Shown: positions 5,572 to 52,419, counted from the first letter of the stretch. The stretch: 64,000 nucleotides of DNA from a candidate division WWE3 bacterium (GCA_943354835.1 CALRDH010000003.1:104496-168495), one strand, 5' to 3'. Notes: generated by a model not told the origin, from the letters alone. Translations and numbers: made by a program.

Positions 5572-5663
5572 CGCGAATTACACCCGAAAAGGCTATGATA
5601 TATGGAAATTTAAAAATGGATTACCGAATGTTGCCTAATATTGCCAGATACTGCCGAATCTAA

Positions 5664-34229: not shown

Positions 34230-35327
34230 GTGGTTATTATCATGTGTATGAAACAGGACAAGACAAAAAAAGCACTTATATCAGGCATCAGCGGTCAAGA
34301 TGGTTCATATTTAGCCGAACTTCTTTTACAAAAAGGTTATGAGGTTCACGGAATCAGACGAAGGACAAGCCTTTTTAATTCGGCACGATTTGATCATCTA
34401 TTTGATCATCTATACGAAGAAGCACAAGACCCCGACGCTAAATTGCATCTTCACTATGGCGATCTATCAGATTCATCTTCATTATATAAAATTGTTTCCG
34501 ACGTAAAACCCGATGAAATTTATAATCTTGGGGCCCAAAGTCATGTCGGAGTAAGTTTTAATATTCCAGAATATACAGGTGACGTAGTAGGACTTGGAGT
34601 TGTAAGACTTCTTGAAGCAATAAAACAATCAGGCTGTAATGCAAAATTCTACCAAGCATCTTCAAGTGAAATGTTTGGAAAAGTTCTAGAAACACCACAA
34701 AAAGAAACAACACCATTTTATCCAAGATCACCATATGGTGTCGCAAAAGTTTATGCATACTGGATAACAAAAAACTATAGAGAAAGTTATGGGATGTTCA
34801 CGTGTAACGGCATTTTATTTAACCATGAATCTCCACGTAGAGGAAGAACATTTGTAACAAGAAAAATCACACGTGCAGTTGCTTTGATATTACAAGGTAA
34901 GTTGGAAACGCTTTACTTGGGCAATTTAGACTCATCACGCGACTGGGGCCACGCAAAAGACTATGTAAATGCTATGTGGCTCATGATGCAACACAAAATC
35001 CCAGACGATTACGTTGTCGCTTCTGGTGAAACACACACTGTAAGAGAATTTGTAGAAAAAGCGTTTAAATACGTAAATATAGATATCGTTTGGCATGGCA
35101 AAGGGGTGGATGAAATTGGAATAGACAAAAAAACAAAAAAAACACTGGTAAAAAGCGACCCAATATACTTTAGGCCAGCAGAAGTCGAATTATTACTCGG
35201 AGATCCGACTAAAGCAAAAAAAGAGCTTAAATGGAAAATGCAATATACTTTCGATGAAATGATAAATGAAATGATGGAATTTGACCTTACAAACGAAGCG
35301 AAAAAAAACGGATATTTAGATTATTAA
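34230..35327 (+). CDS. gmd: GDP-mannose 4,6-dehydratase
   Basis: [21 protein letters not shown]...[12 protein letters not shown]...[13 protein letters not shown]...[10 protein letters not shown]...[10 protein letters not shown] is the unmistakable Gmd pattern. Confidence 0.9.
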
Positions 35328-35341
35328 TTGCAAATACGAAT

Positions 35342-36205
35342 ATGACAAAAGTTAAAGTGATTGATCTTCAAATCAAAGGGACTAGAATCCGTCGTGATGT
35401 TATTGACTTAGTAACAAGATCCCGCGATGGTCATATTCCATCTGCACAATCAATGGTAGAAATTTTATCCGTCCTTTATTATCACATTCTCAACGTAGAC
35501 CCGAAAAACCCAAATAAACCTGATAGAGATAGATTTATACTTAGTAAAGGGCATGGATGTGCTTCACTATATGCAGTATTGGCAGACTTGGGGTTTTTCC
35601 CACGATCTGAATTAGAAAAATACGCAACAATGAGTGGTATATTGGGTGGTCACCCAGAAATGCAAAAAGTTCCTGGAATCGAAGTTTCAACAGGATCACT
35701 CGGGCATGGATTTCCAATGGGGGTTGGCATGGCAATGTCAGCAAAACTAAATAATCAAAAGCACAAAGTATATTGCGTAGTTGGCGATGGCGAATGCAAC
35801 GAAGGAACTATATGGGAAGCTGCTAATATCTCCGCACATTTTAAACTTGATAACCTTGTTGTGATTGTTGATCACAACAAGCAACAAGCTAGTGGTGACG
35901 TTTTTGAAATAATGAATCCACACCTACTTTCTGAAAAGTGGAAATCATTTGGATGGGAAACTATTGAGTTAGATGGACACAACATAGAAAGCCTACATAA
36001 AGCTTTTACATCACTTCCATTTAAATCTGGAAAACCTTCAGCAATAATTGCAAATACCATAAAAGGAAAAGGCATTTCATTTATGGAAAACGAAAGAAGA
36101 TGGCATACAGCAATTCCAAACGAAGAAGAATTTAAATTAGCAATGGCAGAACTAGATGAACAAGAAAAACAACTAACGAAGATAAAAGGAGGCAGTAAAA
36201 AATGA
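35342..36205 (+). CDS. Transketolase, N-terminal (ThDP/PP-domain) subunit of a split enzyme
   Basis: ...ILSKGHGCASLYAVLADLGF...GSLGHGFPMGVGMA...VVGDGECNEGTIWEAANISAHFKLDNLVVIVDHNKQQ. Confidence 0.85.
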   Translation: MTKVKVIDLQIKGTRIRRDVIDLVTRSRDGHIPSAQSMVEILSVLYYHILNVDPKNPNKPDRDRFILSKGHGCASLYAVLADLGFFPRSELEKYATMSGILGGHPEMQKVPGIEVSTGSLGHGFPMGVGMAMSAKLNNQKHKVYCVVGDGECNEGTIWEAANISAHFKLDNLVVIVDHNKQQASGDVFEIMNPHLLSEKWKSFGWETIELDGHNIESLHKAFTSLPFKSGKPSAIIANTIKGKGISFMENERRWHTAIPNEEEFKLAMAELDEQEKQLTKIKGGSKK

Positions 36206-37134
36206 GAAAAGCATTTGTGGAAGCGATATCAGAGATCCTAGACACTAACGACAAAGCATTGCTTCTGATTGGAGATATTGGTGCATACCTTCTAAAAGAT
36301 ATTAGTGCAAAACATCCAAATAGAGTAATAAACATGGGCATTGCAGAAGCTGGAATGATGAGTGCAGCAGTAGGTCTTGCACTAGAAGGGTGGATTCCAT
36401 TTGTTTATACAATAACGCCGTTTGTAACCGCAAGAGCGTACGATCAAATTAGAGCGGGTGTTGGATATCATGAAGCCAATGTAAAAATAGTTGGTATCGG
36501 AAGTGGCCTTTCATATAGTGCACTTGGTGGAACACACCATTCAATAGAAGACATAGCAATGATGAGATCAATACCTGGAATGACAATCATTTCCCCATCA
36601 GATGGACCAGAAACAATACAGGCAACAAAAGCTACAGCAAATCATTTTGGACCTGTTTACCTTAGACTAATGTTAAATGTTGAACCATTAGCTATTGATA
36701 TTAAACGCAAAGAATTCAAAATAGGACAAGCTAAAAAACTTTCGAATGGCAAAGATTTAACAATAATTGCAACTGGAGAACTCGTGAAAGAAGCTTTGGA
36801 CGTTTCCGCTATGTTGCAAAAAGATAAAATATACGCAAGCATAATAAATATGAGCACGATTAAACCAATCGATAAAAAAACTATCGAATCTGAAGTTATA
36901 TCCGCACCTATTATATTCACACTCGAAGAGCACAATGTTATTGGTGGATTAGGATCAGGAGTAGCAGAAGTTATTTCTGAATCAAAGCTAAAATCAAAAC
37001 CACGATTAGTGCGACTCGGAATTCAAGATAAATTCACAAATAAATATGGCCATAAAAGCGAACTCTACGAATATCTGAATCTTGACGCGAAAAGTTTATA
37101 TAAAAGGGTTAAAAAGGAAATTAAAAATGGATAA
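36202..37134 (+). CDS. Transketolase, C-terminal (Pyr-domain + C-terminal domain) subunit
   Basis: ...INMGIAEAGMMSAAVGLALEGWIPFVYTITPFVTARAYDQIR.... 4-nt overlap with the N-terminal subunit gene. Confidence 0.85.
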   Translation: MRKAFVEAISEILDTNDKALLLIGDIGAYLLKDISAKHPNRVINMGIAEAGMMSAAVGLALEGWIPFVYTITPFVTARAYDQIRAGVGYHEANVKIVGIGSGLSYSALGGTHHSIEDIAMMRSIPGMTIISPSDGPETIQATKATANHFGPVYLRLMLNVEPLAIDIKRKEFKIGQAKKLSNGKDLTIIATGELVKEALDVSAMLQKDKIYASIINMSTIKPIDKKTIESEVISAPIIFTLEEHNVIGGLGSGVAEVISESKLKSKPRLVRLGIQDKFTNKYGHKSELYEYLNLDAKSLYKRVKKEIKNG

Positions 37135-38200
37135 ACATCTTGGAATTATATATTCGGATATAAAAGAAATAGCTCACGAAATCTCAAATATTTCAAATAA
37201 ACTTTCAGGATCAACAATAGTTATTACAGGTCCAAATGGTCTTTTAGCAAGCTACATCGTTGACACAATAGCATACTTAAATTCCGAAAAAATTCTAGAA
37301 AAACCATGCAAGGTAATCGGCCTTCAAAGGTCGGAAATAGACAAAAATAGCAGACTTGGACATTTATTAAAACGAAAAGATATAAAACTCATCCAACATG
37401 ACGTTATTGAACCATATAAATTCGCAGAAAAAATCGACTACATAATTCATTCGGCAGGAAGATCAGCCCCTGCAACTTTTCAAAGCGACCCACTTGGAAC
37501 AATTGATGTAAACGTTAAAGGTGTTAGATGGCTTCTTGATTTCGCAAAAGAAAATCCTGTAAAAAGCTTTTTATATATGAGTTCGGGTGAAACATATGGA
37601 AATCCAACACCTGAAAATATTCCAACCCCAGAAACATATGCAGGAAATGTATCAACATTCGCACCACGAGCATGCTACACAGAATCAAAAAGGCTTTCAG
37701 AAACGTTGTGCAATGTGTATTTCCAGCAGTATCAAATTCCAGTAAAAATAGCTCGTCCATTCATAGTATATGGACCCGGACTTCCAATTACTGACAGAAG
37801 AGTCATGGCCGATTTTATGAGGCTTGGGATCGAGGGAAAACCGATAGAAATGCTTTCAGAAGGCTTAGATAAACGGTCTTATTGTTATATCTTGGATGCA
37901 ACAGTGTTATTTTTCAACATGCTCCTTTCGGATTATAACGGTGAAGCTTTCAACGTCGCAAACGACACAGAAGAAATAAGCATTAGAGACTTAGCAGAAA
38001 ACATACATAATATTTGCGGAATTAAAAGTCCCGTTACTGTAAAAAAGACAGAAGACACTAAATTCATATCAGATGCTCCTAAACGCGTTTTGCCTGATAT
38101 TTCAAAAGCTAAAAAACTACTTGGATACAAACCAGAGATTGGGATTCGTGAAGGACTTAAAAGAACAATTGAATGGAACCGGGCTTTTTTCAAAAAATAA
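37127..38200 (+). CDS. NAD-dependent epimerase/dehydratase, UDP-glucuronate decarboxylase (UXS/ArnA-CTD)-like SDR
   Basis: IVITGPNGLLASYIV (Rossmann) and ...YGNPTPENIPTPETYAGNVSTFAPRACYTESKRLSE (the UXS-type YxxxK region). The start is at the ATG overlapping the previous stop. Confidence 0.75.
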   Translation: MDKHLGIIYSDIKEIAHEISNISNKLSGSTIVITGPNGLLASYIVDTIAYLNSEKILEKPCKVIGLQRSEIDKNSRLGHLLKRKDIKLIQHDVIEPYKFAEKIDYIIHSAGRSAPATFQSDPLGTIDVNVKGVRWLLDFAKENPVKSFLYMSSGETYGNPTPENIPTPETYAGNVSTFAPRACYTESKRLSETLCNVYFQQYQIPVKIARPFIVYGPGLPITDRRVMADFMRLGIEGKPIEMLSEGLDKRSYCYILDATVLFFNMLLSDYNGEAFNVANDTEEISIRDLAENIHNICGIKSPVTVKKTEDTKFISDAPKRVLPDISKAKKLLGYKPEIGIREGLKRTIEWNRAFFKK

Positions 38201-38201
38201 T

Positions 38202-39143
38202 ATGTCTGACATAATTGATATTCTAGCTTGCCCAGTATGTGGAAACCCGATAACTAAAACGAACAACAAACTCTCATGTTCAAATAATGATTGCAAGAAA
38301 TCATATAGCCTCCTTTTTGATAACATATTTTCATTTTTAGACAATGACCAATCAGATGATACTGAACTTTCAATTGAAAAATGGAATGAATTTTATTCTG
38401 ACAAAACAAAATTTGATGATTATGAAAAGCGATATCAATTATACCTATCTGATAATTATGATAATGTGTATAGACAAATTTCCGAAAATAAAAAATTTGA
38501 CGAGAAAACAACAATCCTTTTAGAAATAGGATGTGGCCCAATGTTTTTAGCCCGTGCACTTTCTGATAAATGTAAATTGGTTGTCGGTATAGATTTTTCC
38601 ATAAAAGCATTAAAAACTGCAAAAGCAATGCTCGAAAAAAACAAGATAAAAAACTACATACTAATACATGGTGACATAAAAAATATGCCAATTAAAGATG
38701 GCTCGATTGACATTATCTACGGTGGTGGCGTTATAGAGCATTTCACAGATACATATACAGCAATCCAGGAACTTTATCGGGTTCTAAAACCAAGCGGGAT
38801 TTCTTTTAATACCGTTCCACATTTGAATATCGGATCATTAACCTATCGTCAAGTTTGGGGAAATATTCCTAATTTCCCAGTTTTAAAACAGATTGCAGAA
38901 TTCATACATATAAAATTACTAAAATCAAAACATATGACGTTTGGTTATGAATTATCTTTTTTAGCTACACATCTAAAGTATCTTCATAGTAAAGCTGGTT
39001 TCAAAAAGGTAGAAGCTAAAAAGTTCGAAACAAAATTAATGTTTGAATTTATTCCGACAAAAATTCTAAAAAACAGTATGTCTTGGCTAGCAAATAACAG
39101 CCCATTATTTTGGCCAATGATTAAAGTTATAGGGACCAAATAA
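38202..39143 (+). CDS. Class I SAM-dependent methyltransferase with N-terminal Trm112-like zinc ribbon
   Basis: MSDIIDILACPVCGNPI...LSCSNNDC and ...LLEIGCGPMFLARAL...VVGIDFS...GGGVIEHF. Confidence 0.7.
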   Translation: MSDIIDILACPVCGNPITKTNNKLSCSNNDCKKSYSLLFDNIFSFLDNDQSDDTELSIEKWNEFYSDKTKFDDYEKRYQLYLSDNYDNVYRQISENKKFDEKTTILLEIGCGPMFLARALSDKCKLVVGIDFSIKALKTAKAMLEKNKIKNYILIHGDIKNMPIKDGSIDIIYGGGVIEHFTDTYTAIQELYRVLKPSGISFNTVPHLNIGSLTYRQVWGNIPNFPVLKQIAEFIHIKLLKSKHMTFGYELSFLATHLKYLHSKAGFKKVEAKKFETKLMFEFIPTKILKNSMSWLANNSPLFWPMIKVIGTK

Positions 39144-39144
39144 A

Positions 39145-40941
39145 ATGTGCGGCATAGCAGGAATCATTAACGGAAATAAAAACTCAAAAAAAACTTTGCA
39201 AAAAATGATGCATTCTATAAAGCATAGAGGCCCCGACGACAATGGAACATTTTGCGATGAACATGCTGGTGTATATTTCGGATCGCAAAGATTAAGCATC
39301 AACGACTTAAGCCCTAAAGGTAAAATGCCAATGTTTAGTGAAGATAAATCGATTACAGTATGCCAAAATGGAGAAATATATAATTATCACGAATTGAAAA
39401 ACGAACTTTCGACACATGGCCACAAATTTATTTCAGGATCAGATACAGAAGTTATCGTACACGGGTATGAACAATGGGGAACAAATATTTTTAAAAAACT
39501 CCAAGGCATGTTTGCAATCGCAATTTATGACATTAAAAATCATACAGTAATACTCGCAAGAGATAGAATTGGCATAAAGCCTTTGTACTATTTAAGACAT
39601 AAAGATTCAATGTATTTTTCATCTGAAGCTAAATCATTTTCTTCAATTAATGATTTTTCATTTGGAAACAATATTGACTATGAGAATATTAATTTAATGT
39701 TGGGATTCATGTTTCTACCTAAATCCGATGAAACAATAGTCAAAGGAATAAAAAAATTAGAACCAGGTCATTTCATGAAAATTGACCTTAAAAAAAGCTC
39801 ATCGGGAGACATAAGCATACACAAATACTGGGATATAGAAAATTCAAGTAATAAATTAATCTCAAAAGACTTAAGTTTCGAGGATGCAGTAAATGAACTC
39901 GACAAACTGTTACAAAAAACCGTTTCATCACATTTAATGTCAGATGTTCCACTTGGAGTTATGTTATCTGGTGGTCTTGATTCATCATTAATCACGGCCT
40001 TAGTAAAAAAGCTGTCTACATCAGAAACATTAACATTCACTGCAAAATTTGCACATAAACTTAATGAAAGCGAAAACGCAAGAAGTATTGCAAATTACCT
40101 TAAGACGAATCATAAAGAAATTTTAATCGATACAAAAGACGTAAGCGCAAACATAGAAAAGCATATAAGAAATTATGATGACCTAACAACTTTTGATGGT
40201 GGACTTATAACAACAAAAATACTATGTGATGAGATAAAAAAACTTGGCGTGACGGTTCTACTTTTAGGGGAAGGCGCGGATGAAATATTCGGGGGTTATT
40301 CCTGGTTTGGGATTTCGCAACTCCCCTACTCTTTCTTGCCAGATATATTTAAATCTGCAATTTATTATTACGCAATCTCAAGAAACGTAACATTTAATCC
40401 TCAAACATATTATTCCTATTGGAACAAAATGTTCAAATCAATGCACAATTCGGACACATTCAAAAATGTCAGTAACCTGGAATTAAAAGCTCAACTTCCG
40501 AATCATTTGTTAATGAAAGTAGACAAAGCAACAATGGCAGCTTCCGTAGAAGCAAGAGTTCCATTTTTGGATCACAAAGTAGTAGAGTTTGCATATAATC
40601 TTCCTCGTGAATATAAACTTAAAGGAAATATGTACAATTTCAACTCTTCAAATGAAAAATATATATTAAGAAAAGTCGCTGAAAGATATCTTCCACAAGA
40701 AGCCGTATGGAGAAAAAAACGAGGATTCATGCTTCCAATGGGACAAGTACTTGATTCAGACATATCAAAAGTCAAAGATTACATGTTCTCGAAAGACTCA
40801 ATTTCATCAAAACTATTATCAAAGAAACAAGTAGAGAATTTATTTATAGAATCACCTATTGGGATTATGAAAATGCAAAAAGAATATCTAATCTGGAGAT
40901 TATTCCTTCTTGAAGTTTGGAAAAAGGAATATGCAAGATAA
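39145..40941 (+). CDS. asnB: Asparagine synthetase B-type glutamine amidotransferase
   Basis: MCGIAGII (Ntn Cys2), ...RGPDD..., and the PP-loop LSGGLDSS. Confidence 0.88.
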   Translation: MCGIAGIINGNKNSKKTLQKMMHSIKHRGPDDNGTFCDEHAGVYFGSQRLSINDLSPKGKMPMFSEDKSITVCQNGEIYNYHELKNELSTHGHKFISGSDTEVIVHGYEQWGTNIFKKLQGMFAIAIYDIKNHTVILARDRIGIKPLYYLRHKDSMYFSSEAKSFSSINDFSFGNNIDYENINLMLGFMFLPKSDETIVKGIKKLEPGHFMKIDLKKSSSGDISIHKYWDIENSSNKLISKDLSFEDAVNELDKLLQKTVSSHLMSDVPLGVMLSGGLDSSLITALVKKLSTSETLTFTAKFAHKLNESENARSIANYLKTNHKEILIDTKDVSANIEKHIRNYDDLTTFDGGLITTKILCDEIKKLGVTVLLLGEGADEIFGGYSWFGISQLPYSFLPDIFKSAIYYYAISRNVTFNPQTYYSYWNKMFKSMHNSDTFKNVSNLELKAQLPNHLLMKVDKATMAASVEARVPFLDHKVVEFAYNLPREYKLKGNMYNFNSSNEKYILRKVAERYLPQEAVWRKKRGFMLPMGQVLDSDISKVKDYMFSKDSISSKLLSKKQVENLFIESPIGIMKMQKEYLIWRLFLLEVWKKEYAR

Positions 40942-42049
40942 AAATGTATTATTTTTGGTTCACCGAATATTTAATAATGATATTGTAAAAAGAGGCGGAG
41001 CGGACTACATTACAGACTTTTTAATTTCAAAAGGATATTCAATAATAACAATCGAACACCCATTAAATGGTTCGCACGAGTCATATATTAAAACCAATAA
41101 AAGCGCAAAGACATTTAAACTCTTTGGGAAAGGCCCAATAAGGTGGATTCAAGAAATTATATTCAACTTTATAAATGCTCCACGTACGCATGTTAAATTA
41201 ATCATCTCCGTAGACCCTCTTAATTTTTTATCGGCATACTTAATAAAAATAGTTAACAAGAAAAAGTTAAAAATATTGTTTCATTCAATAGACTACTCTG
41301 AAAGTAGGTTTGGAAGCTCTATGCTTGATTACGTATACAATTCACTATATTCGTTTGCTGTTAGAAATGCAGACATTGTTACATATGTAAGCGAACTCAT
41401 GGGAGATAAAATTAAAGAGATAATAAAACTAAATGCAAAAACTGAAAATATCTTATTTCACCTTCCCAATTCACCCGAATTTAAAAAAATTCCTAAAATC
41501 GATATTTCCAAAAAAAATAAGTATTCAATTGTATACAGTAAGTCGTTTATATCAAAAGAGGAATTAATATTATTAGAAAATATAGTAACCATATTAAAAA
41601 AGAAATTCCCAGATATTGTTCTAAACATTGTGGGAAAAATTGATGGGACAACTTATATTATAAGTCCCAAAATAAAAAACAATATAATGGCACATGGATT
41701 AGTCCCTTATGAAAGAAACCTAGAAATAATAAGCGGTTCATACCTCGGGCTTGGTTGGTACGAAAATAAATTTTCATTTGAAAAATATAATGATTCATTA
41801 AAACTTAGAGAATATGCCGCTTCTGGAATTCCTGCGGTTTGTAATGATAAGACATCAACAGCAATTGAAATGGAAAAAGAAGAAGCAGGAATTGTCGCGA
41901 ATACAGAGGCGGAAATCGCTACTGCGATTTCCGCCTTAATTGAAAATCCAAAGAAGTATTCTGAAATGAGAAAGAATGCTTTGTATTGGGCAAAAAAGAA
42001 TGATAAAGCTAAATTACTCGAAAGGTTACTTAACAAATTGAGTCTATGA
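40931..42049 (+). CDS. GT-B glycosyltransferase (GT4-like)
   Basis: The C-terminal ...EYAASGIPAVCNDKTSTAIEMEKEEAGIV... is a GT4-like nucleotide-sugar pocket. Confidence 0.6.
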   Translation: MQDKNVLFLVHRIFNNDIVKRGGADYITDFLISKGYSIITIEHPLNGSHESYIKTNKSAKTFKLFGKGPIRWIQEIIFNFINAPRTHVKLIISVDPLNFLSAYLIKIVNKKKLKILFHSIDYSESRFGSSMLDYVYNSLYSFAVRNADIVTYVSELMGDKIKEIIKLNAKTENILFHLPNSPEFKKIPKIDISKKNKYSIVYSKSFISKEELILLENIVTILKKKFPDIVLNIVGKIDGTTYIISPKIKNNIMAHGLVPYERNLEIISGSYLGLGWYENKFSFEKYNDSLKLREYAASGIPAVCNDKTSTAIEMEKEEAGIVANTEAEIATAISALIENPKKYSEMRKNALYWAKKNDKAKLLERLLNKLSL

Positions 42050-42069
42050 TAAAAACCCTCAAAAAACTT

Positions 42070-42831
42070 TCACTTGTTTTTGATTTTTTGAGCTACTATA
42101 AATATGGATGTCCCTATTGGTAAATTAATAAAGTTAAGTAAATAGTTTTCGAAATACATAACTTTAGTTAATATTTTATTTATAATAGGATTAGCTTTAC
42201 TAACATCATCTTCGGCTTTTTTTGACGATAATAAATAGTACATTTTATTTACTATTTTATAAATAACTAATAGTGGGAAAAGTAAAAATACCCTGTAGCT
42301 ACCTTTTATTATTTTATAGTTATGCGATTCTAAGTCTTCAATCAGCTCATTTAGCATAAACCTTTTTTTTACATGCCAACTAACATCATGATTTGAAAAT
42401 AAAAATGGCAAAGCGGCTGTGTTGATAATTAGATATCCATTTAGTCTAGTGCATCTTGTGAATTCATTTAGCGCTAAAATGTATTCTTTTGGCGAAAGGC
42501 ACGCCAATACATCCATACAGCATATACAGTCAAAAGATGAGTTTTTATAAGGTAGCTTTGATATGTTTGCTTTCAAAACGTCAGTAATTCCTCTTTGTTT
42601 GCAAAATTGAATTGCTACATCTGATGCATCAAATCCGCATACATTATAATTTTCAGATCTTAAAAATTGCAGGTTTTCTCCAGTTCCACACCCTGCATCA
42701 AGAATTACTTTAACATTCGTAGATTTTATATATGAGATTAATAAGTTTCTTAGTCCAAGGTACCACCAATGGCTATGTTCATTTTCATACATATTTTCGT
42801 AAACTTTATTTTCTAGTTGCAATTTTTTCAC
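42070..42831 (-). CDS. Class I SAM-dependent methyltransferase
   Basis: VKVILDAGCGTGENLQFL...VCGFDASDVAIQ. Confidence 0.75.
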   Translation of the reverse strand: MKKLQLENKVYENMYENEHSHWWYLGLRNLLISYIKSTNVKVILDAGCGTGENLQFLRSENYNVCGFDASDVAIQFCKQRGITDVLKANISKLPYKNSSFDCICCMDVLACLSPKEYILALNEFTRCTRLNGYLIINTAALPFLFSNHDVSWHVKKRFMLNELIEDLESHNYKIIKGSYRVFLLFPLLVIYKIVNKMYYLLSSKKAEDDVSKANPIINKILTKVMYFENYLLNFINLPIGTSIFIVAQKIKNK

Positions 42832-45190
42832 TTCAATTTTTTAATAAGAATTAAGCTTACGATAAATGAAATTATGGAGATTATCATCCCTAAGTATAAT
42901 AATTTTGGCACATATATAAATTCGACATCATGTTTTCCATTCGTCAAAAGTATCCCCCTTGAGGTTAAATTGGTTTTATAAATTTTTGTCGGTTTTCCAT
43001 CTATATAAGCTTGCCAACCAGGATAGTAAGTATTACTTAGTACAAGCAATGAATCATCAATACTTTTTACATCAATTTTGACTTTACTGTTACTATAATG
43101 ATAAATATTTGCGTAAGAACCAGGTTTTTGATTGTCAAATAGTGGCAGATTGGAATCAGAGATTACAACTGCGGTTCTTCTTAAATCTAGTGAGCTCATC
43201 TTTTCTAATGCTTCTTTCGATGTTTTTACCTTTAATATATTTTCTGTAATAAAAGCCATTGGAAGTCTATCAGTATTTTCGTAGACGTAGATTGGTGTTC
43301 CAACTGGAAGTACAGTACCAGTTCTTAAAATGAATTTACCTGAATCTTCCTCACGAATAGGTACCGCTTCAATTAGATCAAGACCATTCGGGAGTTTCTC
43401 TGCAAATGGCTTGCTAGTAAAAATGTATTGGACTGCTAATATATCAAATAATTGCGAGTCTGGACTTACACTCCAATCAGCTTCCTGAAAGTGGTTGTAT
43501 AGTAGGTTGTAATCTTTTAATGTAAGGCCATGGAAACCTTCTGTTTGATATATTTCAGAACTTGCGGTATTAAATCTATTTGTTTCCTCGAAAAAATATG
43601 CACGTGTTAAGTTATTTCTCATTTCAGTTGAGTATTTCTTGGTTATCGTATTTTCACTATAGAAAACCCTTGGATCTTGTGTTGAATTTATAAACGCAGA
43701 CTTGGAAATTAAAGTGAATAAGTCAAGAAGGATTAAAACAACCAGTGAGAATTTAAAAATACTTGGGTTTATATATTTTTTAAACCGGAACAGTATATAG
43801 GTTGGTATAAAAAATACAAAAAATAAACTCAAACCATCAGTAATATTATTTATATCCACAGGGTTCCCCCCTATAGCCTTAAGTATTAATCCGACAAAAA
43901 TCGATATAAAATAAATGAGTATAAAAAGCAATGTTAAGGCTTTTAACCATGTAGCTACGCTTTTCGGGAATTCGTGCTCTAATAAATATGTATATCCATA
44001 ACCTGCTAAGACGGCAAGGCTAAAGGCTGTGTATATATGTATGAATGTTAGGAATCTGAAATATCCGTAAAAAGGGATAAATAAATATGCGAATTGATGT
44101 AAAAAAGTAATATTCCCAAGCGATAAAAGTGTAAATACAAACGCCGATATGAAAAAGAAACTAACTGCTTTTATTTTGATCAGTTTTAAACCTATGGCAA
44201 CCAATATTAGTCCAGCTGTGCTTATATAACCTATTACTGCTGGACCTGTCTGTGCACCATAATAGTACGGTAATAAATAATTAAGCAGACCTCTTAATTC
44301 CATTGAAGCACTTGCAGATCCTGTGATATTTAAATGTTCCCGTATTGCAATATTTTGAAGCTCAAAGGCTGGTAAAAAAGTAACAGCAGAAATTGATATC
44401 CCGATTGCACAAGCAATTAAAAGGCTTTTAATGATTCTGCCTAATGATTTTATATCTTTTGCGAAAAAGAAAATGACTAAAAATGCGATAAATAAATTAT
44501 TATGGAGAAAAAATGCTGTATATCCACCAAGAAGGAGACAAGATGAGACTAATCCTGAAAAAATAGCTTGCCTGTAAGATCTGTTTGTATCGATTTATAC
44601 ATGAAGTAGAGTTGTAGCGGCATTAAAGCTGGTCCACTAATTGGATTTGAAAATATTCCTACATATATCATGCTACCGCTTAGGCCAAATATAATCCCAG
44701 AAATGAATGCGGGAAATGGTTTGAACATCAGACATTTTCTTAGAAAGATATATGTGAATAGGCTTGCCAGTGATAGATGAAATACTGAATAGTATGTAGC
44801 AAGAAAAACTAATAAATTTTGCGGACTAAGGAGTGAAACTAAGTAGAAAATAAACCGGACTGGATAAAATATCGATACTCTGTCTAACCCTCCAATTAAT
44901 GGAAATCCAGTGAAATTATAGGGATCCCAAAGAGAATCAGTAGCATTTTTAATAGATAATATCGCTCTGGTTGCAGAAACGCCTTGCAGAAAATCTGGGT
45001 AGTAATACCCTAAAAAATCGACATGAAAATACACAGTATTAAATCCAGTAATATCAAAATTTCTCCAAAATCCAATGATTGGTAATATGAAAAATAATAG
45101 AATCCATATAATGTTTTTATTCGCTTGTAATTTCTGAATGATTTGGTCTACGAGTTGATAGATTTTTCCCAACACCAAAAGATTATACAT
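42828..45190 (-). pseudogene. YfhO-like polytopic membrane glycosyltransferase-family gene, apparently split by a -1 frameshift in a T6 (plus-strand A6) homopolymer
   Basis: ORF 44549..45190 (213 aa, multi-TM) ends ...GKLFFQD*. Another frame runs open, without a Met, from just downstream of that stop (…LVSSCLLLGGYTAFFLHNNLFIAFLVIFFFAKDIKSLGR…SASASMELRGLLNY…) into ORF 42828..44303 (491 aa). Adding one T to the T6 run (plus A6 ~44558-44563) fuses them into a ~785-aa protein. A C-terminal extracytoplasmic domain plus terminal TM (…DVEFIYVPKLLYLGMIISIISFIVSLIL) is YfhO-like. Confidence 0.5.
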
Positions 45191-45248
45191 ACGTTAATAG
45201 TCGATAGCCAATAGGTATAATAATCATGTTCCATATTGAACTTCAAAA

Positions 45249-45277
45249 CTGTCAAAATCAAAATTTATAAGTATAAT
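45249..45277 (+). promoter_or_regulatory. Candidate promoter (CTGTCA -35, 17 bp spacer, TATAAT -10), giving a near-leaderless transcript for the GT2-GtrA gene
   Basis: ctgtca at 45249-45254 and tataat at 45272-45277. The ATG is at 45287, only ~10 nt past the -10, with no SD. Confidence 0.25.
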
Positions 45278-45286
45278 TAATGATAA

Positions 45287-46504
45287 ATGAATCTACGGCT
45301 TTCTTCTTTGACCATATTTTTTCCGTTTTATAATGATGCTGGCACAGTCAAAAAAATGCTTGACCAAGCATATGAATATGGATCTCTCGTAACAAATGAT
45401 CTTGAGGTAATCGCACTAAACGGTGGAAATTCAAAAGACAATACATATCAAGAAATTCTAAAATTTCAAAAATTAAATCCTTCGGTAAAAATTGTAAATA
45501 AAAAAGATAATGTCGAAGGCTATGCCGTCATAAAACATGGGCTATACTCTTCCACAAAGGATTTTGTTTTTTATACTGACGGCGACGCACAATATAGCCT
45601 AAAATCTGATTTCTTAAATCTTATCAAAAAACAAAACGATACAAATGCGGATGTAGTAAATGGACACAAAAAAGACAGAAAGGATAATATTTTCAGGATT
45701 TTATTCGGTTTTTTATACGCCACTTTTAGCAGAGTGATTTTTAAATCACCAATTACGGATATTGACTGTGACTTCAGATTGATACGGACATCTATTCTAA
45801 AAAGATTTAAGCTAGAAAGTCACGATGCATCAATCCTGCCAGAGCTTGTTCTTAAGCTAAAACTAAATGGTGCGAATTTCTCCGAAATTCCCGTCAGCCA
45901 TTTTCCAAGAGAATATGGCAAATCAAATTACACTGCATTTTCACTATTTAAAGAGAAGCTGGCTGGTGATTTTAAGTTATACATAAAGATGAGAAAAGAA
46001 ATAAAAAATATTGACATCAATTTATTCGAATTTACATTGTCATATTTAAAAAACAGCGAGAATTTCATATCAAGCTTTTTACGTATAGATAACTTTAAAT
46101 TTATTAAATTCGGCTTAGTTGGAGTTAGTAGTGTCATATTGCATTTTATATTTTTTAATATATTTATGTTATTAACTAATTTAAACACAGGATTAATAAC
46201 GATCGTATCAGACCAATTACCGATATTGACGTCGTATATTTTGAACAATAACTATACATTTAAGAAAATCAAAGATGTATCAAGTAATCGAAAACATCCG
46301 ACTAGGTTTATAAAGTACTGGTCAATAATAATGATTTCAACTGTGATACACAGTATCATTATTACATCAGGAATTTATATTTTCGGTGATACGATTTTAA
46401 TTGCGAATATATTCTTTATTGCTGGAGTAATAATTGCCATGATTTGGAATTATTATTTTCACAGTACATTGATTTGGAAAGCTTCTATAGAAAAAGGAAG
46501 ATAA
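45287..46504 (+). CDS. GT2 glycosyltransferase fused to a C-terminal GtrA-like 4-TM domain (CsbB/GtrB-like polyprenol-phosphate sugar synthase)
   Basis: N-terminal GT2 (LTIFFPFYNDAGTV...FYTDGDAQY). C-terminal FIKFGLVGVSSVILHFIFFNIF...IAMIWNYYFHSTLIWK is GtrA-family. Confidence 0.75.
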   Translation: MNLRLSSLTIFFPFYNDAGTVKKMLDQAYEYGSLVTNDLEVIALNGGNSKDNTYQEILKFQKLNPSVKIVNKKDNVEGYAVIKHGLYSSTKDFVFYTDGDAQYSLKSDFLNLIKKQNDTNADVVNGHKKDRKDNIFRILFGFLYATFSRVIFKSPITDIDCDFRLIRTSILKRFKLESHDASILPELVLKLKLNGANFSEIPVSHFPREYGKSNYTAFSLFKEKLAGDFKLYIKMRKEIKNIDINLFEFTLSYLKNSENFISSFLRIDNFKFIKFGLVGVSSVILHFIFFNIFMLLTNLNTGLITIVSDQLPILTSYILNNNYTFKKIKDVSSNRKHPTRFIKYWSIIMISTVIHSIIITSGIYIFGDTILIANIFFIAGVIIAMIWNYYFHSTLIWKASIEKGR

Positions 46505-46592
46505 CTTTGCTGGTTTACCTAGAAAGAGAATATTTCGATTTTGCATTTTTTCTGCTATGGTTTTGATAAAGTCATTTAGTATGATTAATTAA

Positions 46593-47210
46593 ATGAAAAA
46601 AAACGAGAAAATTATAGTAAACCTAGGGTGTAGCGGATCAAGGATTCCTGGCTCTATTGGGGTAGACGTCATACCAAGAGAAGGTACTGTTGATATAGTT
46701 CATAATCTAAATAAATACCCATACCCCTTTAAAGAAAATTACGCTGATGAAATCCATTTATACCATGTACTTGAACATTTAGATGATTCAATCAAAACAA
46801 TTGAAGAAATTTACAGGATACTAAAACCAGATGGAATTTTATATTTGAGAGTTCCACATTTCAGCAGTTTATACGCCTGGGGTGATATAACGCATAAAAA
46901 AGCTTTTTCAATTTATGCGTTCGATATTTTCGACGCAAATAGAGATTATAAAAAATGGGGATATACCAAAGCTAAATTCGAAATTCTAACCAGAAAAATC
47001 AGATATTTTTATACATGGCCAAACGAAGACTGGTACATGAAATACATAGTCAAGCCAGACTGGCCATTTGGGGCCGGAATAATATTGAAACCAATTATTA
47101 CTTTACTAAATTTTCTAATCAATTTGTCACCAGAAATATTCGAAAGATTTTGGTGCTATTGGGTTGGTGGCGCTGCTGAAATATACTTAATCATGAAAGC
47201 TAAAAAATAA
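46593..47210 (+). CDS. Class I SAM-dependent methyltransferase (Methyltransf_11/23-like)
   Basis: VNLGCSGSRIPGSIGVDV...YHVLEHLDD...LKPDGILYL. Confidence 0.55.
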   Translation: MKKNEKIIVNLGCSGSRIPGSIGVDVIPREGTVDIVHNLNKYPYPFKENYADEIHLYHVLEHLDDSIKTIEEIYRILKPDGILYLRVPHFSSLYAWGDITHKKAFSIYAFDIFDANRDYKKWGYTKAKFEILTRKIRYFYTWPNEDWYMKYIVKPDWPFGAGIILKPIITLLNFLINLSPEIFERFWCYWVGGAAEIYLIMKAKK

Positions 47211-47266
47211 TGGGCTTGTTAGACACAAAGAATATCATGTAGAATGCAATATAGTTCACGAAGTTA

Positions 47267-48481
47267 ATGCGGAAAGGAAAATTTAAAGTGGAAGATTTAA
47301 AAGTAAAATTAATAAAAGATACTTTCTACAACGAAGCACAAACAAAAAAAGAATTATGTGATTTCATAATGAAAACAGATCGTTTGAGTATGTGGACAGA
47401 GTGTAGAAAGTTTGAAGATAATTTCGCAAAGCACCAGGGAGCAAAAAACTGCTCCATGTTCACAAGCGGAAGTACCGCAAACCTAGCATTAATTCAATCA
47501 CTTATAAATCTAAAAAGATTAGAAAAAGGAGATACAGTTGCGTTTTCCGCTGTCACCTGGTCTACAAATGTAATGCCAATGCTACAACTTGGATTAAATA
47601 TTCATCCGGTTGATGTTGAAGTTGATACCTTAAATAGTTCAGCTGAATTATTCGAAAAAGCATTAGAAGAAAATCCGTCAATAAAGGCTTTCTTTATAAC
47701 CAACGTTTTGGGATTTTGTTCTGACATAGATAAAATTGCTGATATATGCAAAAGTCGAGGAATTATCCTTATAGAAGATAATTGCGAATCTTTAGGAACT
47801 ATTTATAAAGGTAAAAAACTTGGATCATATGGACTTGCGGGAACATTCTCTTTTTACGTAGGCCATCACATGTCTACAATTGAAGGCGGGGCATTATGTA
47901 CCGACGATGCAGAATTAGATACCATGGTTAAAATGGTTCGGTCACACGGAATGGATAGAAACTTAGACGAAGACAAAAAAATAAAAGTCAGAGAAAAATT
48001 CAAACTTGATGATTTCTATTCGCGATATACATTCTATACTCTTGGTTATAATTTAAGACCAAATGAAATCAACGGCTTTTTGGGAAACAATCAACTTCAA
48101 TACATTGACGAAATCTTTAGAATTAGAAATGAAAATTTCATGAAATTTATATCTGCCGTAAACAAAAATGATATTGTACCAATCCGATATAATCATATAG
48201 ATTTTGTTTCTAATTTCGCATTTCCAGTTATCTGCAAAAACAAAACTATTTTGAATAAATATATAAAGGTATTCGAAAATGCAGGAATAGAAATTCGCCC
48301 AGTCGTTAGCGGAAATATGATGAATCAAATATTCATAAAAGATTACGTAGGTAGTAAAAAGTTCGACCTACCAGGCGCACAAAAAATACACGAAGATGGA
48401 TTTTACTTCGGGAATAATCCCGACATGACAAAAAAAGAGATCAATATAGTTATAAAAGCGTTTAAAGATGCCAGTAAGTAA
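47267..48481 (+). CDS. DegT/DnrJ/EryC1/StrS-family PLP enzyme with His at the Schiff-base Lys position (sugar 3-dehydratase candidate, ColD/E1-like)
   Basis: The fold-type I sugar aminotransferase pattern is (...MFTSGSTANLALIQSLI...). The conserved SFxxxKxxxxGEGG is FSFYVGHHMSTIEGG here, so His replaces the Lys that sits 6 residues before EGG. Confidence 0.7.
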   Translation: MRKGKFKVEDLKVKLIKDTFYNEAQTKKELCDFIMKTDRLSMWTECRKFEDNFAKHQGAKNCSMFTSGSTANLALIQSLINLKRLEKGDTVAFSAVTWSTNVMPMLQLGLNIHPVDVEVDTLNSSAELFEKALEENPSIKAFFITNVLGFCSDIDKIADICKSRGIILIEDNCESLGTIYKGKKLGSYGLAGTFSFYVGHHMSTIEGGALCTDDAELDTMVKMVRSHGMDRNLDEDKKIKVREKFKLDDFYSRYTFYTLGYNLRPNEINGFLGNNQLQYIDEIFRIRNENFMKFISAVNKNDIVPIRYNHIDFVSNFAFPVICKNKTILNKYIKVFENAGIEIRPVVSGNMMNQIFIKDYVGSKKFDLPGAQKIHEDGFYFGNNPDMTKKEINIVIKAFKDASK

Positions 48482-49301
48482 AGTTACAAATATATCAAAA
48501 AAAGAGTTCTGCAAAAATTTTGGCATAGAAGAAATTGACCTAGTTGATTTAGGTATATTTAATGAAAATGACTTTAAAGAGCTAGAGGAAGTATTTGGAT
48601 ATTTAAAAGGCAGTAAGCGACTTTCACATTTAGTTAATGGCATACCATACCTGATCTCACACTTCTTTGAATTGTTAGCAATCGCAGATCAGATAATATC
48701 AAATCAACTCAAGGACATAAAAAAATATTCAACAGATCAAAAGATCAAGCTAAAGGATAGATATCCAATATCGGACTATATAATAAAGGCTAGTATTATT
48801 TCGGGATTTAAGCCAAAAAATATTTTAGAAATAGGAACATATTATGGCTGGGGAACGGCTTCTATCAAAGCAGCTTCGCCAAAATCGACAGTTTACACAA
48901 TGAATCCGAAAGAGAATGAAAATGCGAATAATCCAATAAATGAAAATGACATAGGCAAAATTTATAGGAAAAAGAACCTAGATGCAAAGCAAATCTGGGC
49001 AGACAGCACAAAATATGACTATAAAAAATTACCAGAAATAGACGTCACATATATAGACGGAAATCATGAACATGATTTTGTATATTCAGATCTTGTAAAT
49101 ACATCAAAGATAACTAAAAAGGCAATAGTACTAGATGACTATATACCATCAAAAGATAGTCCGCGAGGTGACGTCAGAGCTTATGGAGAATGGAATAAAT
49201 CTGTTGTATCAGCTGTAGATAGCTTTTTAAATAAAAATGGTAAATTATTTAAGTATGCATATTGGATAGAAGAGACACCTATTTGTGTACTAATTAAATA
49301 A
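48468..49301 (+). CDS. Methyltransferase-like protein (class I, Methyltransf_24/CmcI-like)
   Basis: ...ILEIGTYYGWGTASI...TYIDGNHEHDFVYSDL...IVLDDY. Confidence 0.45.
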   Translation: MPVSKVTNISKKEFCKNFGIEEIDLVDLGIFNENDFKELEEVFGYLKGSKRLSHLVNGIPYLISHFFELLAIADQIISNQLKDIKKYSTDQKIKLKDRYPISDYIIKASIISGFKPKNILEIGTYYGWGTASIKAASPKSTVYTMNPKENENANNPINENDIGKIYRKKNLDAKQIWADSTKYDYKKLPEIDVTYIDGNHEHDFVYSDLVNTSKITKKAIVLDDYIPSKDSPRGDVRAYGEWNKSVVSAVDSFLNKNGKLFKYAYWIEETPICVLIK

Positions 49302-49303
49302 AT

Positions 49304-50269
49304 ATGGAAATAAATGCAAGCCAGTCTAAAAACTTTTTATATAATCTTTTAAAAATTCGTCTAGTCGATGAATATATTGCTGACGTGTATCCAACAGATG
49401 TTATCAAGTGCCCAATACACTTAAGTATCGGATCTGAAGCAGTTTCGGTTGGAATATGCTCTGCGCTCAAGAAAACTGATATGGTAATAGGCGGGCATCG
49501 TGGACACGGAATATACTTAGCAAAAGGTGGAGATCTTAATGAATTTATGGCTGAAATGTATGGTAGAGAAACTGGATGCTCTGGTGGAAAAGGCGGATCT
49601 ATGCATTTAATTTCACTCGAAAACGGCCTTTTGGGCACAACACCAATACTTGGATCGACAATACCAATTGGAGTTGGCGCAGCACTATCATCAAAATTGA
49701 AAAAAAATGGCAAATTAACTGCAATATTTTTTGGCGACGGAGCATCAGAAGAAGGCGTCTATTATGAAAGTTTAAACCTAGCCGCTCTATACAAACTCCC
49801 AGTAATTTTTGTATGCGAAAATAATAAATACTCGATATTTCAGGATCTAAAAGCGAGACAGCCTGTCGATAATTTATATAAAAAAGGAGAGGCGTTTGGT
49901 ATTTCCGGAGAAAGAGTCGATGGAAATAATGTTGAGGACGTCTTTTTAGCCGCAAAACGAGCAGTTAAAGTAGCTAAATCAGGAAAACCATATTTAATAG
50001 AATGTGTCACAAATAGATGGAGGCAGCATGTTGGCCCATTTTATGACCATGAAATTGGATTTGGAACTAAAGAAGAAATTGAGAAAATTATGTTAAATGA
50101 AGACCCAATTGCAAATTTATTAAAGAAGGCTAAAAAGGCGGGTTTTTTCGACGATAAATTTGTCGAAAAAACCCGCAAACGAATTATTAAAGAAGTTACT
50201 AATTCAATCGAATTTGCAAACAAAAGCCCACTTCCGAGTGTCGAAAAGTTGTATAGTCATATATATTAA
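49304..50269 (+). CDS. ThDP-dependent 2-oxoacid dehydrogenase E1 component alpha subunit-like
   Basis: ...CPIHLSIGSEAVSVGICSALKKTDMVIGGHRGHGIYLAKGGDL...GKGGSMHL...FFGDGASEEG...FVCENNKYS. Confidence 0.85.
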   Translation: MEINASQSKNFLYNLLKIRLVDEYIADVYPTDVIKCPIHLSIGSEAVSVGICSALKKTDMVIGGHRGHGIYLAKGGDLNEFMAEMYGRETGCSGGKGGSMHLISLENGLLGTTPILGSTIPIGVGAALSSKLKKNGKLTAIFFGDGASEEGVYYESLNLAALYKLPVIFVCENNKYSIFQDLKARQPVDNLYKKGEAFGISGERVDGNNVEDVFLAAKRAVKVAKSGKPYLIECVTNRWRQHVGPFYDHEIGFGTKEEIEKIMLNEDPIANLLKKAKKAGFFDDKFVEKTRKRIIKEVTNSIEFANKSPLPSVEKLYSHIY

Positions 50270-50271
50270 TT

Positions 50272-51327
50272 ATGAGAGAATTATCCTACGGAGAAGCTAT
50301 AAAAGAAGCAACTTTTCAGATGATGGAAAAAGATCCATCTATAATTGTAATGGGAGAAGGTGTAAATGATCCTACTGGGATGTTTGGATCAACTTCAGAT
50401 TTATATAAAACATTCGGGAAAGAAAGATTAATAGATGTTCCAAATAGCGAAAATGCGTTTACTGGAATGGCAATTGGTGCTGCTATGACAGGAATGCGAC
50501 CGATTATCGTTCATCAAAGAAATGATTTTTTACTGTTAGCTATGGATCAGATGGCAAGTCAAGCAGCGAAATGGTCATATATGTTTTCAGGTAAAGCACA
50601 TGTCCCGATTGTAATAAGGGCTGTTGTAGGGCGCGGATGGGGACAAGGAGCACAACACTCCCAAAGTTTACAAAGTTTATTTATGCATTTTCCGGGATTA
50701 AAAGTTGTCATGCCAGCCAATGCATATGATGCCAAAGGCCTTCTTGTATCAGCACTCTCTGAAGAAAATAGCCCGATAATTATTATTGAACATAGATGGT
50801 TATACAAAGCTAAATGCGACGTTCCAGAAAAGATTTATTCAGTCCCGATTGGTAAAGCTAGTATCGCAAGAAAAGGTAAAGACGTAACGATTATCGCTAC
50901 CTCTCTAGCAGTTGCAGATTCTTTAGTTGCATCAGAAAAACTTATAGAATTAGGCGTTTCTGCAGAAGTTATAGATCTAAGAACTGTACGCCCACTGGAC
51001 CTTGATATGATTAAAAAATCAGTAATCAAAACTCAAAACCTTGTAATTGTCGATTCTGGTTGGAAAACCTGTGGTGTATCCGCCGAGGTTGCAGCAGTGA
51101 TAGCAGAAGATCCAAAATCATTTCGAGCTTTAAAATCACCAATTAAACGAGTGGCATGGGCCGAGACACCGGCACCAACTACATATGCGCTTGAAAATAT
51201 CTTCTACCCTACAGTTGAAACTATTGTGTCAGCAACATTAGAAGTTATAAAAGGCGAAACTATCAATATGGAATCAAAATACGAAGAACAAAAATTTACA
51301 AAGAAACAATTTACTGGATCCTTTTAG
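50272..51327 (+). CDS. ThDP-dependent 2-oxoacid dehydrogenase E1 component beta subunit-like
   Basis: MRELSYGEAIKEA...IVMGEGV...ERLIDVPNSENAFTGMAIGAAMTGMRPI.... Directly follows the alpha gene. Confidence 0.85.
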   Translation: MRELSYGEAIKEATFQMMEKDPSIIVMGEGVNDPTGMFGSTSDLYKTFGKERLIDVPNSENAFTGMAIGAAMTGMRPIIVHQRNDFLLLAMDQMASQAAKWSYMFSGKAHVPIVIRAVVGRGWGQGAQHSQSLQSLFMHFPGLKVVMPANAYDAKGLLVSALSEENSPIIIIEHRWLYKAKCDVPEKIYSVPIGKASIARKGKDVTIIATSLAVADSLVASEKLIELGVSAEVIDLRTVRPLDLDMIKKSVIKTQNLVIVDSGWKTCGVSAEVAAVIAEDPKSFRALKSPIKRVAWAETPAPTTYALENIFYPTVETIVSATLEVIKGETINMESKYEEQKFTKKQFTGSF

Positions 51328-51333
51328 AACCAA

Positions 51334-52419
51334 ATGAAATCAGCACAGGACGTAATATCACAAGACATAAAAAAAATAATAAGAGAATTAAAAGGCGAAT
51401 TGAAACAATTTTCTGGAAAAACATTATTGATCACTGGCTCAAACGGACTTCTTGGGAGCTATATTGTTGACACAATAAAATACTTAAACGACACCAAGAG
51501 TTTGAGCAGTCCCTGCAAAGTAATTGGTATTAACAGATCAAAAATAATAAATTCATCTAGAAATTTCCACGCACTAGAAGATAAAAATTTTAGATTCATC
51601 GAACACGACGTATCAATCCCACTACCTATAAATACTAAAATTGACTATATAATCCATTCAGCAGGATCATCAAGTCCGGCTGTGTTTCAAAAATACCCGA
51701 TAAATACAATCGACGTAAATGTTAATGGAACAAGATGGCTTTTAGAACTTGCTAAGGAACAAAAAATAGGAAGTATGCTTTATTTAAGTAGCGGTGAGAT
51801 ATACGGCAACCCAAACAAAAACAATACACCAACACCAGAAACATATAATGGAAATTCTTCCACACTTGATAAAAGATCGTGTTATATAGAATCAAAAAGG
51901 TTAGCTGAAACACTCTGCAAGATCTATAACGAGAATTTTAACGTCCCCGTAAAAATAGCCAGACCATTTGTAATTTATGGTCCAGGAGTGAAAACTGCCG
52001 ACGGCAAGGTCTTATCTGATTTCATGAAGTATGCGATAGAAAATAAGCCAATCGAAATGCTAAGCGAAGGGAATGACTTAAGGTCTGATTGTTATATCTC
52101 GGATGCCACGGTTGCATTCCTAAAAATCCTATTATCAAATAAAAATGGCGAGGTATATAATGTTGGAAGTGATAAAGAAGAATTTACGATAAAACAGTTA
52201 GCCGAAAAGATTCATAAAATCTGCAAAATAGAAACAAGTCCGGTTTATAAAGGGGCACCCATTCCAGCTCATTTAAAAAGTGCTCCGAAACGGTTTTCAG
52301 CTGATATAACCAAAATCAGAAAAGACTTTGATTTCATGCCAAAAGTTAATCTAGAAATAGGCCTTAAAAATACAATTGAGTGGAATAAATTATTTATGAA
52401 ACAAAGACATGAAAGATAG
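51334..52419 (+). CDS. NAD-dependent epimerase/dehydratase, UXS-like SDR (paralog of 37127..38200)
   Basis: LLITGSNGLLGSYIVDTIKYLN...YGNPNKNNTPTPETYNGNSSTLDKRSCYIESKRLAE is collinear with the other SDR. Confidence 0.75.
   Translation: MKSAQDVISQDIKKIIRELKGELKQFSGKTLLITGSNGLLGSYIVDTIKYLNDTKSLSSPCKVIGINRSKIINSSRNFHALEDKNFRFIEHDVSIPLPINTKIDYIIHSAGSSSPAVFQKYPINTIDVNVNGTRWLLELAKEQKIGSMLYLSSGEIYGNPNKNNTPTPETYNGNSSTLDKRSCYIESKRLAETLCKIYNENFNVPVKIARPFVIYGPGVKTADGKVLSDFMKYAIENKPIEMLSEGNDLRSDCYISDATVAFLKILLSNKNGEVYNVGSDKEEFTIKQLAEKIHKICKIETSPVYKGAPIPAHLKSAPKRFSADITKIRKDFDFMPKVNLEIGLKNTIEWNKLFMKQRHER

Follow-up and report, generated by a model that had tools for sequence, protein, structure and literature searches.

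A likely recent frameshift pseudogene of the YfhO family beside an intact GT2-GtrA fusion gene in a candidate division WWE3 bacterium

Background

The pairing of a GT-A with a GT-C glycosyltransferase (GT) is a textbook arrangement for envelope glycosylation. Three-component glycosylation systems link a GT-A synthase of a lipid-bound sugar, a flippase-type element and a GT-C transferase (PMC8035078), and one of the closest known relatives of the locus considered here is the CsbB-GtcA-YfhO system for N-acetylglucosamine on teichoic acids of Bacillus subtilis, Staphylococcus aureus and Listeria monocytogenes (PMC8035078, PMC5836110). In a 64,000-nt stretch of DNA from a candidate division WWE3 bacterium (hereafter the window, with positions counted from its first letter), a YfhO-family gene is interrupted by a frameshift. 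As an earlier note on this DNA had stated, it is divergent from a gene for a GT2 domain fused to a GtrA-like domain; the two genes are 96 bp apart. We consider it likely that the locus is a GT-A/GT-C surface-glycosylation module whose GT-C step is genetically broken in this strain.

Like the CsbB-GtcA-YfhO system, the window locus has linked genes for a GT2 enzyme predicted to charge polyprenyl phosphate, for a membrane element of the GtrA type and for a GT-C of the YfhO family. It differs in that the GT2 and the GtrA-like element share one chain, where the known system has a separate GtcA, the membrane domain of the YfhO-family protein is too diverged for Pfam alignment, the GT-C gene is frameshifted, a methyltransferase gene is probably co-transcribed with it, and the host is a Patescibacteria bacterium. 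The earlier note had called the locus a CsbB-YfhO-type module. An extracytoplasmic GT-A/GT-C module of this kind is supported by Pfam matches, predicted folds and adjacency of the genes in the closest ortholog's locus, but the partner is not of the CsbB/GtrB type: instead of the two C-terminal helices of that type it has four, which match PF04138.

Parts of the locus also recall other systems. The type-III DPMS of Pyrococcus furiosus (5MLZ, 5MM1, 9EP0; PMC5526996, PMC12992685) likewise carries a GT-A and a four-helix GtrA-like domain on one chain, and the latter domain has been suggested to act as a flippase (PMC5526996, PMC12992685). As in the ArnC/ArnT aminoarabinose pathway, which we consider together with GtrB (Gram-negative bacteria and cyanobacteria), a lipid-linked modified sugar would be made inside the cell and moved outside by a GT-C. 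However, the GT-C of the window is of the YfhO type rather than the ArnT/PMT_2 type, and nothing at its locus points to lipid A or aminoarabinose. The Pgf system of Streptococcus mutans (PgfS, PgfM1 and PgfM2) shows that proteins, too, can serve as acceptors of YfhO-family enzymes, although nothing at the window locus points to adhesin substrates.

Results and discussion

A frameshift interrupts the YfhO-family gene

The YfhO-family gene is encoded on the minus strand in two overlapping frames (Table 1). The earlier note had described an open reading frame (ORF) that is interrupted at ...GKLFFQD* and continues in another frame, and this is indeed the case: the upstream 213-aa ORF stops at a TAG codon (44551..44549). 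By homology, residues 1 to ~204 of this fragment are authentic and its last ~9 residues (TDLTGKLFFQD) are out of frame. In the downstream frame no ATG, GTG or TTG codon occurs between 44594 and 44303, and the first such codon, the ATG at 44303, begins a 491-aa ORF (P0002). Restored residues ~205-296, with four predicted helices, therefore fall outside any start-initiated ORF. No Shine-Dalgarno motif was seen before this ATG, nor does any gene of the region show one. More broadly, none of the 11 gene starts examined in 38000..52000 has a recognisable Shine-Dalgarno motif within 25 nt upstream. The two frames overlap by 43 nt (44552-44594), and any single-base insertion in the overlap yields one ORF of 787 amino acids.

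The earlier note had placed the frameshift in a homopolymer, proposing that one extra T in a T6 run (44558-44563) restores a protein of ~785 amino acids. The run exists and the insertion does restore the 787-aa ORF, but ortholog comparison, insertion scoring and nucleotide alignment speak against the run as the site of the lesion, and the latter two point instead to an A3/A4 run farther upstream. The closest ortholog (P0001; 783 aa, 66% identity over 98% of length, far above chance) carries the same T6 run and reads it in the window's downstream frame (GCA ATT TTT TCT GGA, or AIFSG), so the lesion does not lie in the run. Already ahead of the run, the ortholog's NKSYKYAIFSG is paralleled by NRSYRQAIFSG in the downstream frame of the window, and in the upstream frame the resemblance to every relative ends after YKSIQ.

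To locate the lesion, every single-base insertion across the frame overlap was made and the products were scored against nine orthologs (BLOSUM62). The best summed score came from an extra A in CAAAC (plus strand 44584-44586), and this repair outscored the T-run repair in all nine orthologs, by +10 to +38 BLOSUM62 units. In a MAFFT nucleotide alignment of the window with the ortholog's locus (L004), the sole gap falls at ata-caaac, and ATTTTTTCxGGATTAG is gap-free. These comparisons indicate that one base was lost ~25 nt upstream of the T6 run at codon ~205, most simply by shortening of A4 to A3 (CAAAAC to CAAAC); with that base restored, the site reads ...YKSIQNRSYRQAIFSG... The case shows how a frameshift can be wrongly assigned to the nearest homopolymer: once an ortholog was compared, the lesion moved by 25 nt and phase variation lost its basis.

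The earlier note had raised phase variation as one explanation, that is, a contingency gene in which slipped-strand mispairing in a homopolymer toggles the GT-C. Surface-glycan genes are typical targets of phase variation, and the T6 run does lie within the 43-nt zone in which a one-base gain restores the frame. Yet the run has the same length and is in frame in the ortholog, and the inferred site is a tract of only three or four bases. Moreover, the T6 run is unremarkable, being one of 12 short homopolymer runs in the gene (at least six T/A or at least five G/C), and the whole window contains no A/T run of at least nine and no G/C run of at least seven. Contigs from three other records (described below) show no length variation. 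We regard phase variation as very unlikely.

The same run bears on recoding, in which a -1 ribosomal or transcriptional slip on U6 would give some full-length enzyme with a nine-residue substituted loop. UUU UUU lies in the frame overlap, where a single tRNA-Phe could re-pair one base back into the downstream frame. The heptamer, however, is A UUU UUU rather than the canonical X XXY YYZ, the RNA downstream of the run folds no better than shuffled sequence (z = +1.48), and a U6 run is on the short side for transcriptional slippage to be efficient. Every relative has the protein in a single frame, so the arrangement is not a conserved device. Recoding thus seems highly improbable, and we would say the same of the more specific idea that the frameshift is a translational throttle, with low-frequency -1 slippage of tRNA-Phe on U6 supplying small amounts of full-length GT-C. 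If it were true, surface glycosylation in a bacterium of the Candidate Phyla Radiation (CPR) would be tuned by recoding.

The lesion appears to be real, recent and inactivating

Records of the 491-aa and 213-aa products exist at NCBI, at ENA and in Logan, and both ORFs recur on three further contigs. These are a 33-kb Logan contig (ERR5863117), a 4.2-kb contig (ERZ27280224) and a 3.5-kb Logan contig (ERR3719140), each of which matches the window at 100% identity (over 9476, 4169 and 3490 bases, respectively). The ERZ27280224 contig is an ENA/NCBI record of MEGAHIT style, and alleles were compared at the level of assembled contigs.

The earlier note had offered a sequencing indel as one explanation. 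A sequencing or assembly artefact, by which the gene would be intact in the organism and one base dropped from the consensus, would agree with a lone lesion in a gene that is otherwise conserved, including in the stretch that lacks a start codon. Nevertheless, the identical sequence was independently assembled by Logan from two different runs, ERR5863117 and ERR3719140, and is present in the ERZ27280224 contig, the site is a run of three to four bases rather than a long homopolymer, and the intact allele is absent from the protein clusters and JGI metagenomes searched. Specifically, no near-identical full-length protein was found among 5.8 billion protein clusters, an exact-pattern scan of JGI metagenomes matched neither allele, and protein-guided scans of JGI metagenomes and GTDB genomes brought up nothing nearer than the 66% ortholog; the GTDB matches do not include the genome of the window itself. 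Consensus error is unlikely because accurate-read assemblies from two runs agree at the 3-base run. We consider an artefact improbable, and on the evidence of these contigs we take the lesion to be real in the sampled population.

With respect to its age, the 2.36 kb of the AT-rich YfhO-family gene contain no other lesion, and the clade-invariant residues G223, Y224, F228, S268, P274, R284 and G291 are intact in the start-less stretch. Both features indicate that the frameshift damage is recent, and a recently inactivated gene is accordingly the explanation of the earlier note that we favour.

A functional split gene, in which the 213-aa and 491-aa products form an active two-chain GT-C, would be in keeping with both ORFs being called as genes in every assembly. 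Residues ~205-296, however, would be lost for lack of a start codon, and with them would go four predicted helices and the seven clade-invariant residues. The catalytic first external loop lies on the 213-aa fragment, residues ~205-296 would go untranslated, and a working two-chain enzyme is therefore unlikely. There is also no split homolog among the 50 that we found: relatives encode the protein in a single frame. A functional split gene is hardly credible in our view, and the YfhO-family gene is most likely a recent, strain-specific pseudogene that would have lost its function.

The restored protein is predicted to be a GT-C glycosyltransferase

The restored 787-aa protein resembles intact Patescibacteria homologs of 750-800 aa and matches PF09586 with 49.7 bits (gathering threshold 28.5), confirming the family assignment of the earlier note. 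Full-length members among the 50 homologs are intact and roughly 710-850 aa long, and homologs with names are from Patescibacteria or Roizmanbacteria. PF09586 occurs in 46 of the 50, which is every one of the 46 with precomputed Pfam annotation. The YfhO-family NCBIfam models PgfM1 and PgfM2 match the restored protein weakly at the same C-terminal end as Pfam does. Together with PgfS, a GT2, for the partner, they are among the best NCBIfam matches of the locus, at tens of bits against cut-offs of 500-1500.

A PDB sequence search with a 30-sequence family profile gave only noise (E 0.02 or worse) and no solved structure. The AlphaFold model built from a 30-sequence alignment has a pLDDT of 88.7 and a pTM of 0.90, and its top 18 Foldseek matches in the PDB are all GT-C enzymes (AftD, STT3, PglB and ArnT), followed by Emb and Pmt4. 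The restored protein thus models as a GT-C glycosyltransferase with a multi-helix membrane domain. In the first external loop, on the 213-aa fragment, D46 and D66 do not vary within the close clade, and an acidic residue (D/E) preceding YP at position 58 (D58) is conserved across the family. Toward the C terminus, the model shows a large beta-rich domain outside the membrane (residues ~530-760), followed by a final membrane helix (763-782). The coding sequence itself is not intact, owing to the one-base deletion.

A search of the window for paralogs with the restored protein returned only its own two fragments. A 797-aa ORF that starts at 27895 was considered as a relative, and profile comparison shows no relation.

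The partner is predicted to glycosylate polyprenyl phosphate

The intact 405-aa fusion protein carries a GT2 domain (PF00535, 52.4 bits) and a GtrA domain (PF04138, 49.3 bits). The fusion is a common one: these two domains also occur together in ~75 of its 120 best-listed homologs (more than 4,000 matches in all), in one chain of ~370-400 aa, and some homologs bear the NCBI name 'bifunctional glycosyltransferase family 2/GtrA family protein'. All family-invariant columns are present in the window protein (71/71), and the D98-G-D100 motif is invariant.

The structure model of the fusion (pLDDT 85.7) ends in four C-terminal helices. Its best fold match, over the whole length, is the P. furiosus DPMS (E about 1e-17), followed by ArnC and GtrB, and the last two are also its sequence matches in the PDB. 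Since DPMS, ArnC and GtrB all glycosylate polyprenyl phosphates, and the GT2 domain has a DXD motif as well as kinship to these enzymes, the fusion is predicted to be a polyprenyl-phosphate glycosyltransferase. ArnC is the best PDB-sequence and NCBIfam match of the GT2, although at a score of 46 against an equivalog cut-off of 529 bits; the NCBIfam scores for PgfS and AglJ are likewise far below their cut-offs.

The likeness to DPMS includes conserved polar residues in the membrane helices, which in the fusion family are the invariant N291, D309, N320, N374 and N388. Judged from sequence, these residues would be compatible with the flipping role proposed for the DPMS domain. The fusion shares only ~17% sequence identity with the P. 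furiosus enzyme, however, and it is not a type-III DPMS in the strict sense. That family is defined by DADxQHPP, by residues that bind Dol-P and by an Asn248/Asn277/Phe338 pocket (PMC12992685), a definition that confines it to archaea, and the fusion has YTDGDAQY rather than DADxQHPP. By analogy with the recent proposal for archaeal DPMS, the fused GT2-GtrA protein might both make and flip its own lipid-linked sugar, an idea that we hold to be possible but doubtful.

A putative surface-glycosylation module with a broken outer step

All three elements of a three-component system lie within 3.7 kb of the window, and they are adjacent in the closest ortholog's locus as well. We read the locus as a GT-A/GT-C module that would decorate a surface polymer, possibly a protein, outside the membrane, and we infer its substrates, acceptor and flipping step as follows. 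At the cytoplasmic face, the GT2 domain would move a sugar from a nucleotide-sugar to polyprenyl (undecaprenyl) phosphate, a donor that presumably comes from enzymes encoded nearby (an aminotransferase, dehydratase/epimerase, methyltransferase and thiamine-dependent enzymes). The four-helix GtrA-like domain would serve as membrane anchor and perhaps also as flippase of the lipid-linked sugar. At the outer face, the YfhO-family GT-C would then move the sugar to its acceptor, for which a polysaccharide is suggested by genes with Wzx-like (Polysacc_synt) and Wzy_C domains in the surrounding glycan island. It is this outer step that would be broken here, as the deletion cuts the catalytic first external loop off from the remainder of the protein.

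When B. subtilis keeps CsbB but loses YfhO, undecaprenyl phosphate becomes trapped (PMC11081497), and because of this an intact GT2-GtrA protein next to a dead GT-C may come at a cost unless its product is used by another GT-C of the island. The locus thus raises the question of whether another GT-C of the island takes the lipid-linked sugar of the GT2-GtrA protein. What the island presents is an elaborate surface-glycan repertoire with multiple GT-C enzymes in a small-genome CPR bacterium. The components themselves add little that is new: many Patescibacteria genomes already have annotated proteins of the YfhO family and of the bifunctional GT2/GtrA type.

Several points weigh against reading the locus as a broken module of this kind. 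The Logan contigs may share read sets with the deposited genome, so that a systematic error or a mixed population is conceivable. Ribosomal slippage might, improbable as it is, yield some full-length product. Only the C-terminal 77 residues of the restored protein (696-772) align to Pfam YfhO, at profile positions 758-835 of 835, so that membership of the membrane domain rests on homologs and fold. Finally, in a single-sequence phmmer survey of 80 distant YfhO-like loci, a GT2 could be detected within 6 kb in only eight, and the GT2-GtrA fusion is seen solely with the closest ortholog; adjacency is therefore a trait of close relatives and not of the whole family.

Gene neighbourhood in the window and in relatives

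The coordinates of the locus are collected in Table 1. The methyltransferase gene overlaps the stop of the YfhO-family gene by 4 nt, and the two are therefore probably co-transcribed. A consensus scan of 41900-46700 for promoters and terminators gave no more sites than shuffled sequence, and tRNA and Rfam scans of the window gave no matches. An alternative genetic code was rejected, as all three stop codons are in use.

Table 1. Features of the YfhO-family and GT2-GtrA locus (window positions)
Feature	Position	Strand	Remarks
YfhO-family N-terminal fragment, 213-aa ORF	44549..45190	-	ends ...TGKLFFQD*
YfhO-family downstream frame, restored residues ~205-787	42828..44594	-	open from 44594, stop at 42828
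A6 (plus strand) / T6 (coding strand) run	44558..44563		site proposed in the earlier note; not the lesion
Inferred one-base deletion site	44584..44586 (plus strand TTT)		coding strand CAAAC; intact gene most likely CAAAAC
Stretch aligning to Pfam YfhO	42876..43106	-	restored residues 696-772; includes YYPGW motif
Class I S-adenosylmethionine-dependent methyltransferase, 253 aa	42070..42831	-	GTG start; E 2e-100 to L009 neighbour
Divergent intergenic region, YfhO-family gene / GT2-GtrA gene	45191..45286		
Intact GT2 + GtrA-like fusion, 405 aa	45287..46504	+	PF00535 and PF04138
GT2 domain of fusion	45311..45802	+	DXD motif, D98-G-D100
Four-helix GtrA/DPMS domain of fusion	46106..46477	+	PF04138

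In the locus of the closest ortholog (L004; P0001 is also represented at L009), the YfhO, methyltransferase and GT2-GtrA genes are adjacent on one strand; next come DegT, Methyltransf_24, E1 alpha/beta and epimerase genes, in an order shared with the window. Comparison of window 42070..45190 with L004 8001..12271 shows the YfhO-methyltransferase block to be inverted in the window. The L004 genome has two YfhO-family paralogs ~2 kb apart (788 aa, 3490..5856; 783 aa, 8001..10352), one of which has a divergent small GT2 (234 aa), and the window has a single, broken copy.

Two more distant Patescibacteria homologs (P0007 and P0006, 36-39% identity) have a small GT2 ~3 kb away, in loci with aminotransferase, oxidoreductase, formyltransferase and small GT2 genes; the formyltransferase, DegT and small GT2 genes of such distant relatives recall the Arn pathway. 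No GT2 was seen within 6 kb at the locus of another homolog (P0004). The closest homolog of the GT2-GtrA protein (locus L089) adjoins a PMT_2 GT-C gene. By analogy, the lipid-linked sugar from GT2-GtrA could alternatively be taken up by the PMT_2 enzyme of the window. This PMT_2/ArnT-like gene lies near the window's end (60484..63991, minus strand, taken with a 697-aa Wzy_C protein resembling O-antigen ligases and polymerases, which is encoded directly downstream of it); its ORF begins at 63991 and appears to run off the window.

From ~16 kb on, the window is a large glycan island with Wzx-like (Polysacc_synt) and Wzy_C genes, several GT1 and GT2 genes, a GDP-mannose dehydratase, thiamine-dependent enzymes and two more GT-C candidates. 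At 26880..27911 (plus strand), a GT2 gene overlaps by 17 nt the gene for the 797-aa membrane protein mentioned above (27895..30288, plus strand). This protein has ~10 hydrophobic segments in its first 380 residues and no Pfam match; NCBIfam gives a sub-threshold match to the mycobacterial terminal beta-(1->2)-arabinofuranosyltransferase, an AftB-like GT-C (E 3e-29, 101.6 bits against a cut-off of 1050). Together, the two genes (26880..30288) may form another GT-A/GT-C pair of the island, of a poorly described kind.

Two split thiamine-dependent enzyme sets are found at 34230..37134 and 47267..51327, with the N and C halves of a transketolase at 35342..37134 and E1 alpha/beta at 49304..51327. 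Alongside them are an RfbH-like DegT aminotransferase/dehydrase and a GDP-mannose 4,6-dehydratase, and this set of genes hints at synthesis of a branched-chain or deoxy-amino sugar. Two epimerase/dehydratase paralogs of the island (37082..38200 and 51334..52419, both on the plus strand) share 54% identity over 357 residues. A B12-binding radical SAM protein of 550 aa (24712..26364, plus strand) is encoded among glycosyltransferase genes and may be a sugar C-methylase or similar enzyme.

Long ORFs elsewhere in the window encode a 1220-aa product with Ig-like Big_13 and fn3 domains (5664..9326, minus strand), which coincides with a rise in GC content to 0.44 at 8-10 kb, and a 1316-aa product (54778..58728, plus strand) whose sole match is a weak one to DUF5667. 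Either product could be a surface protein and a candidate acceptor for glycosylation.

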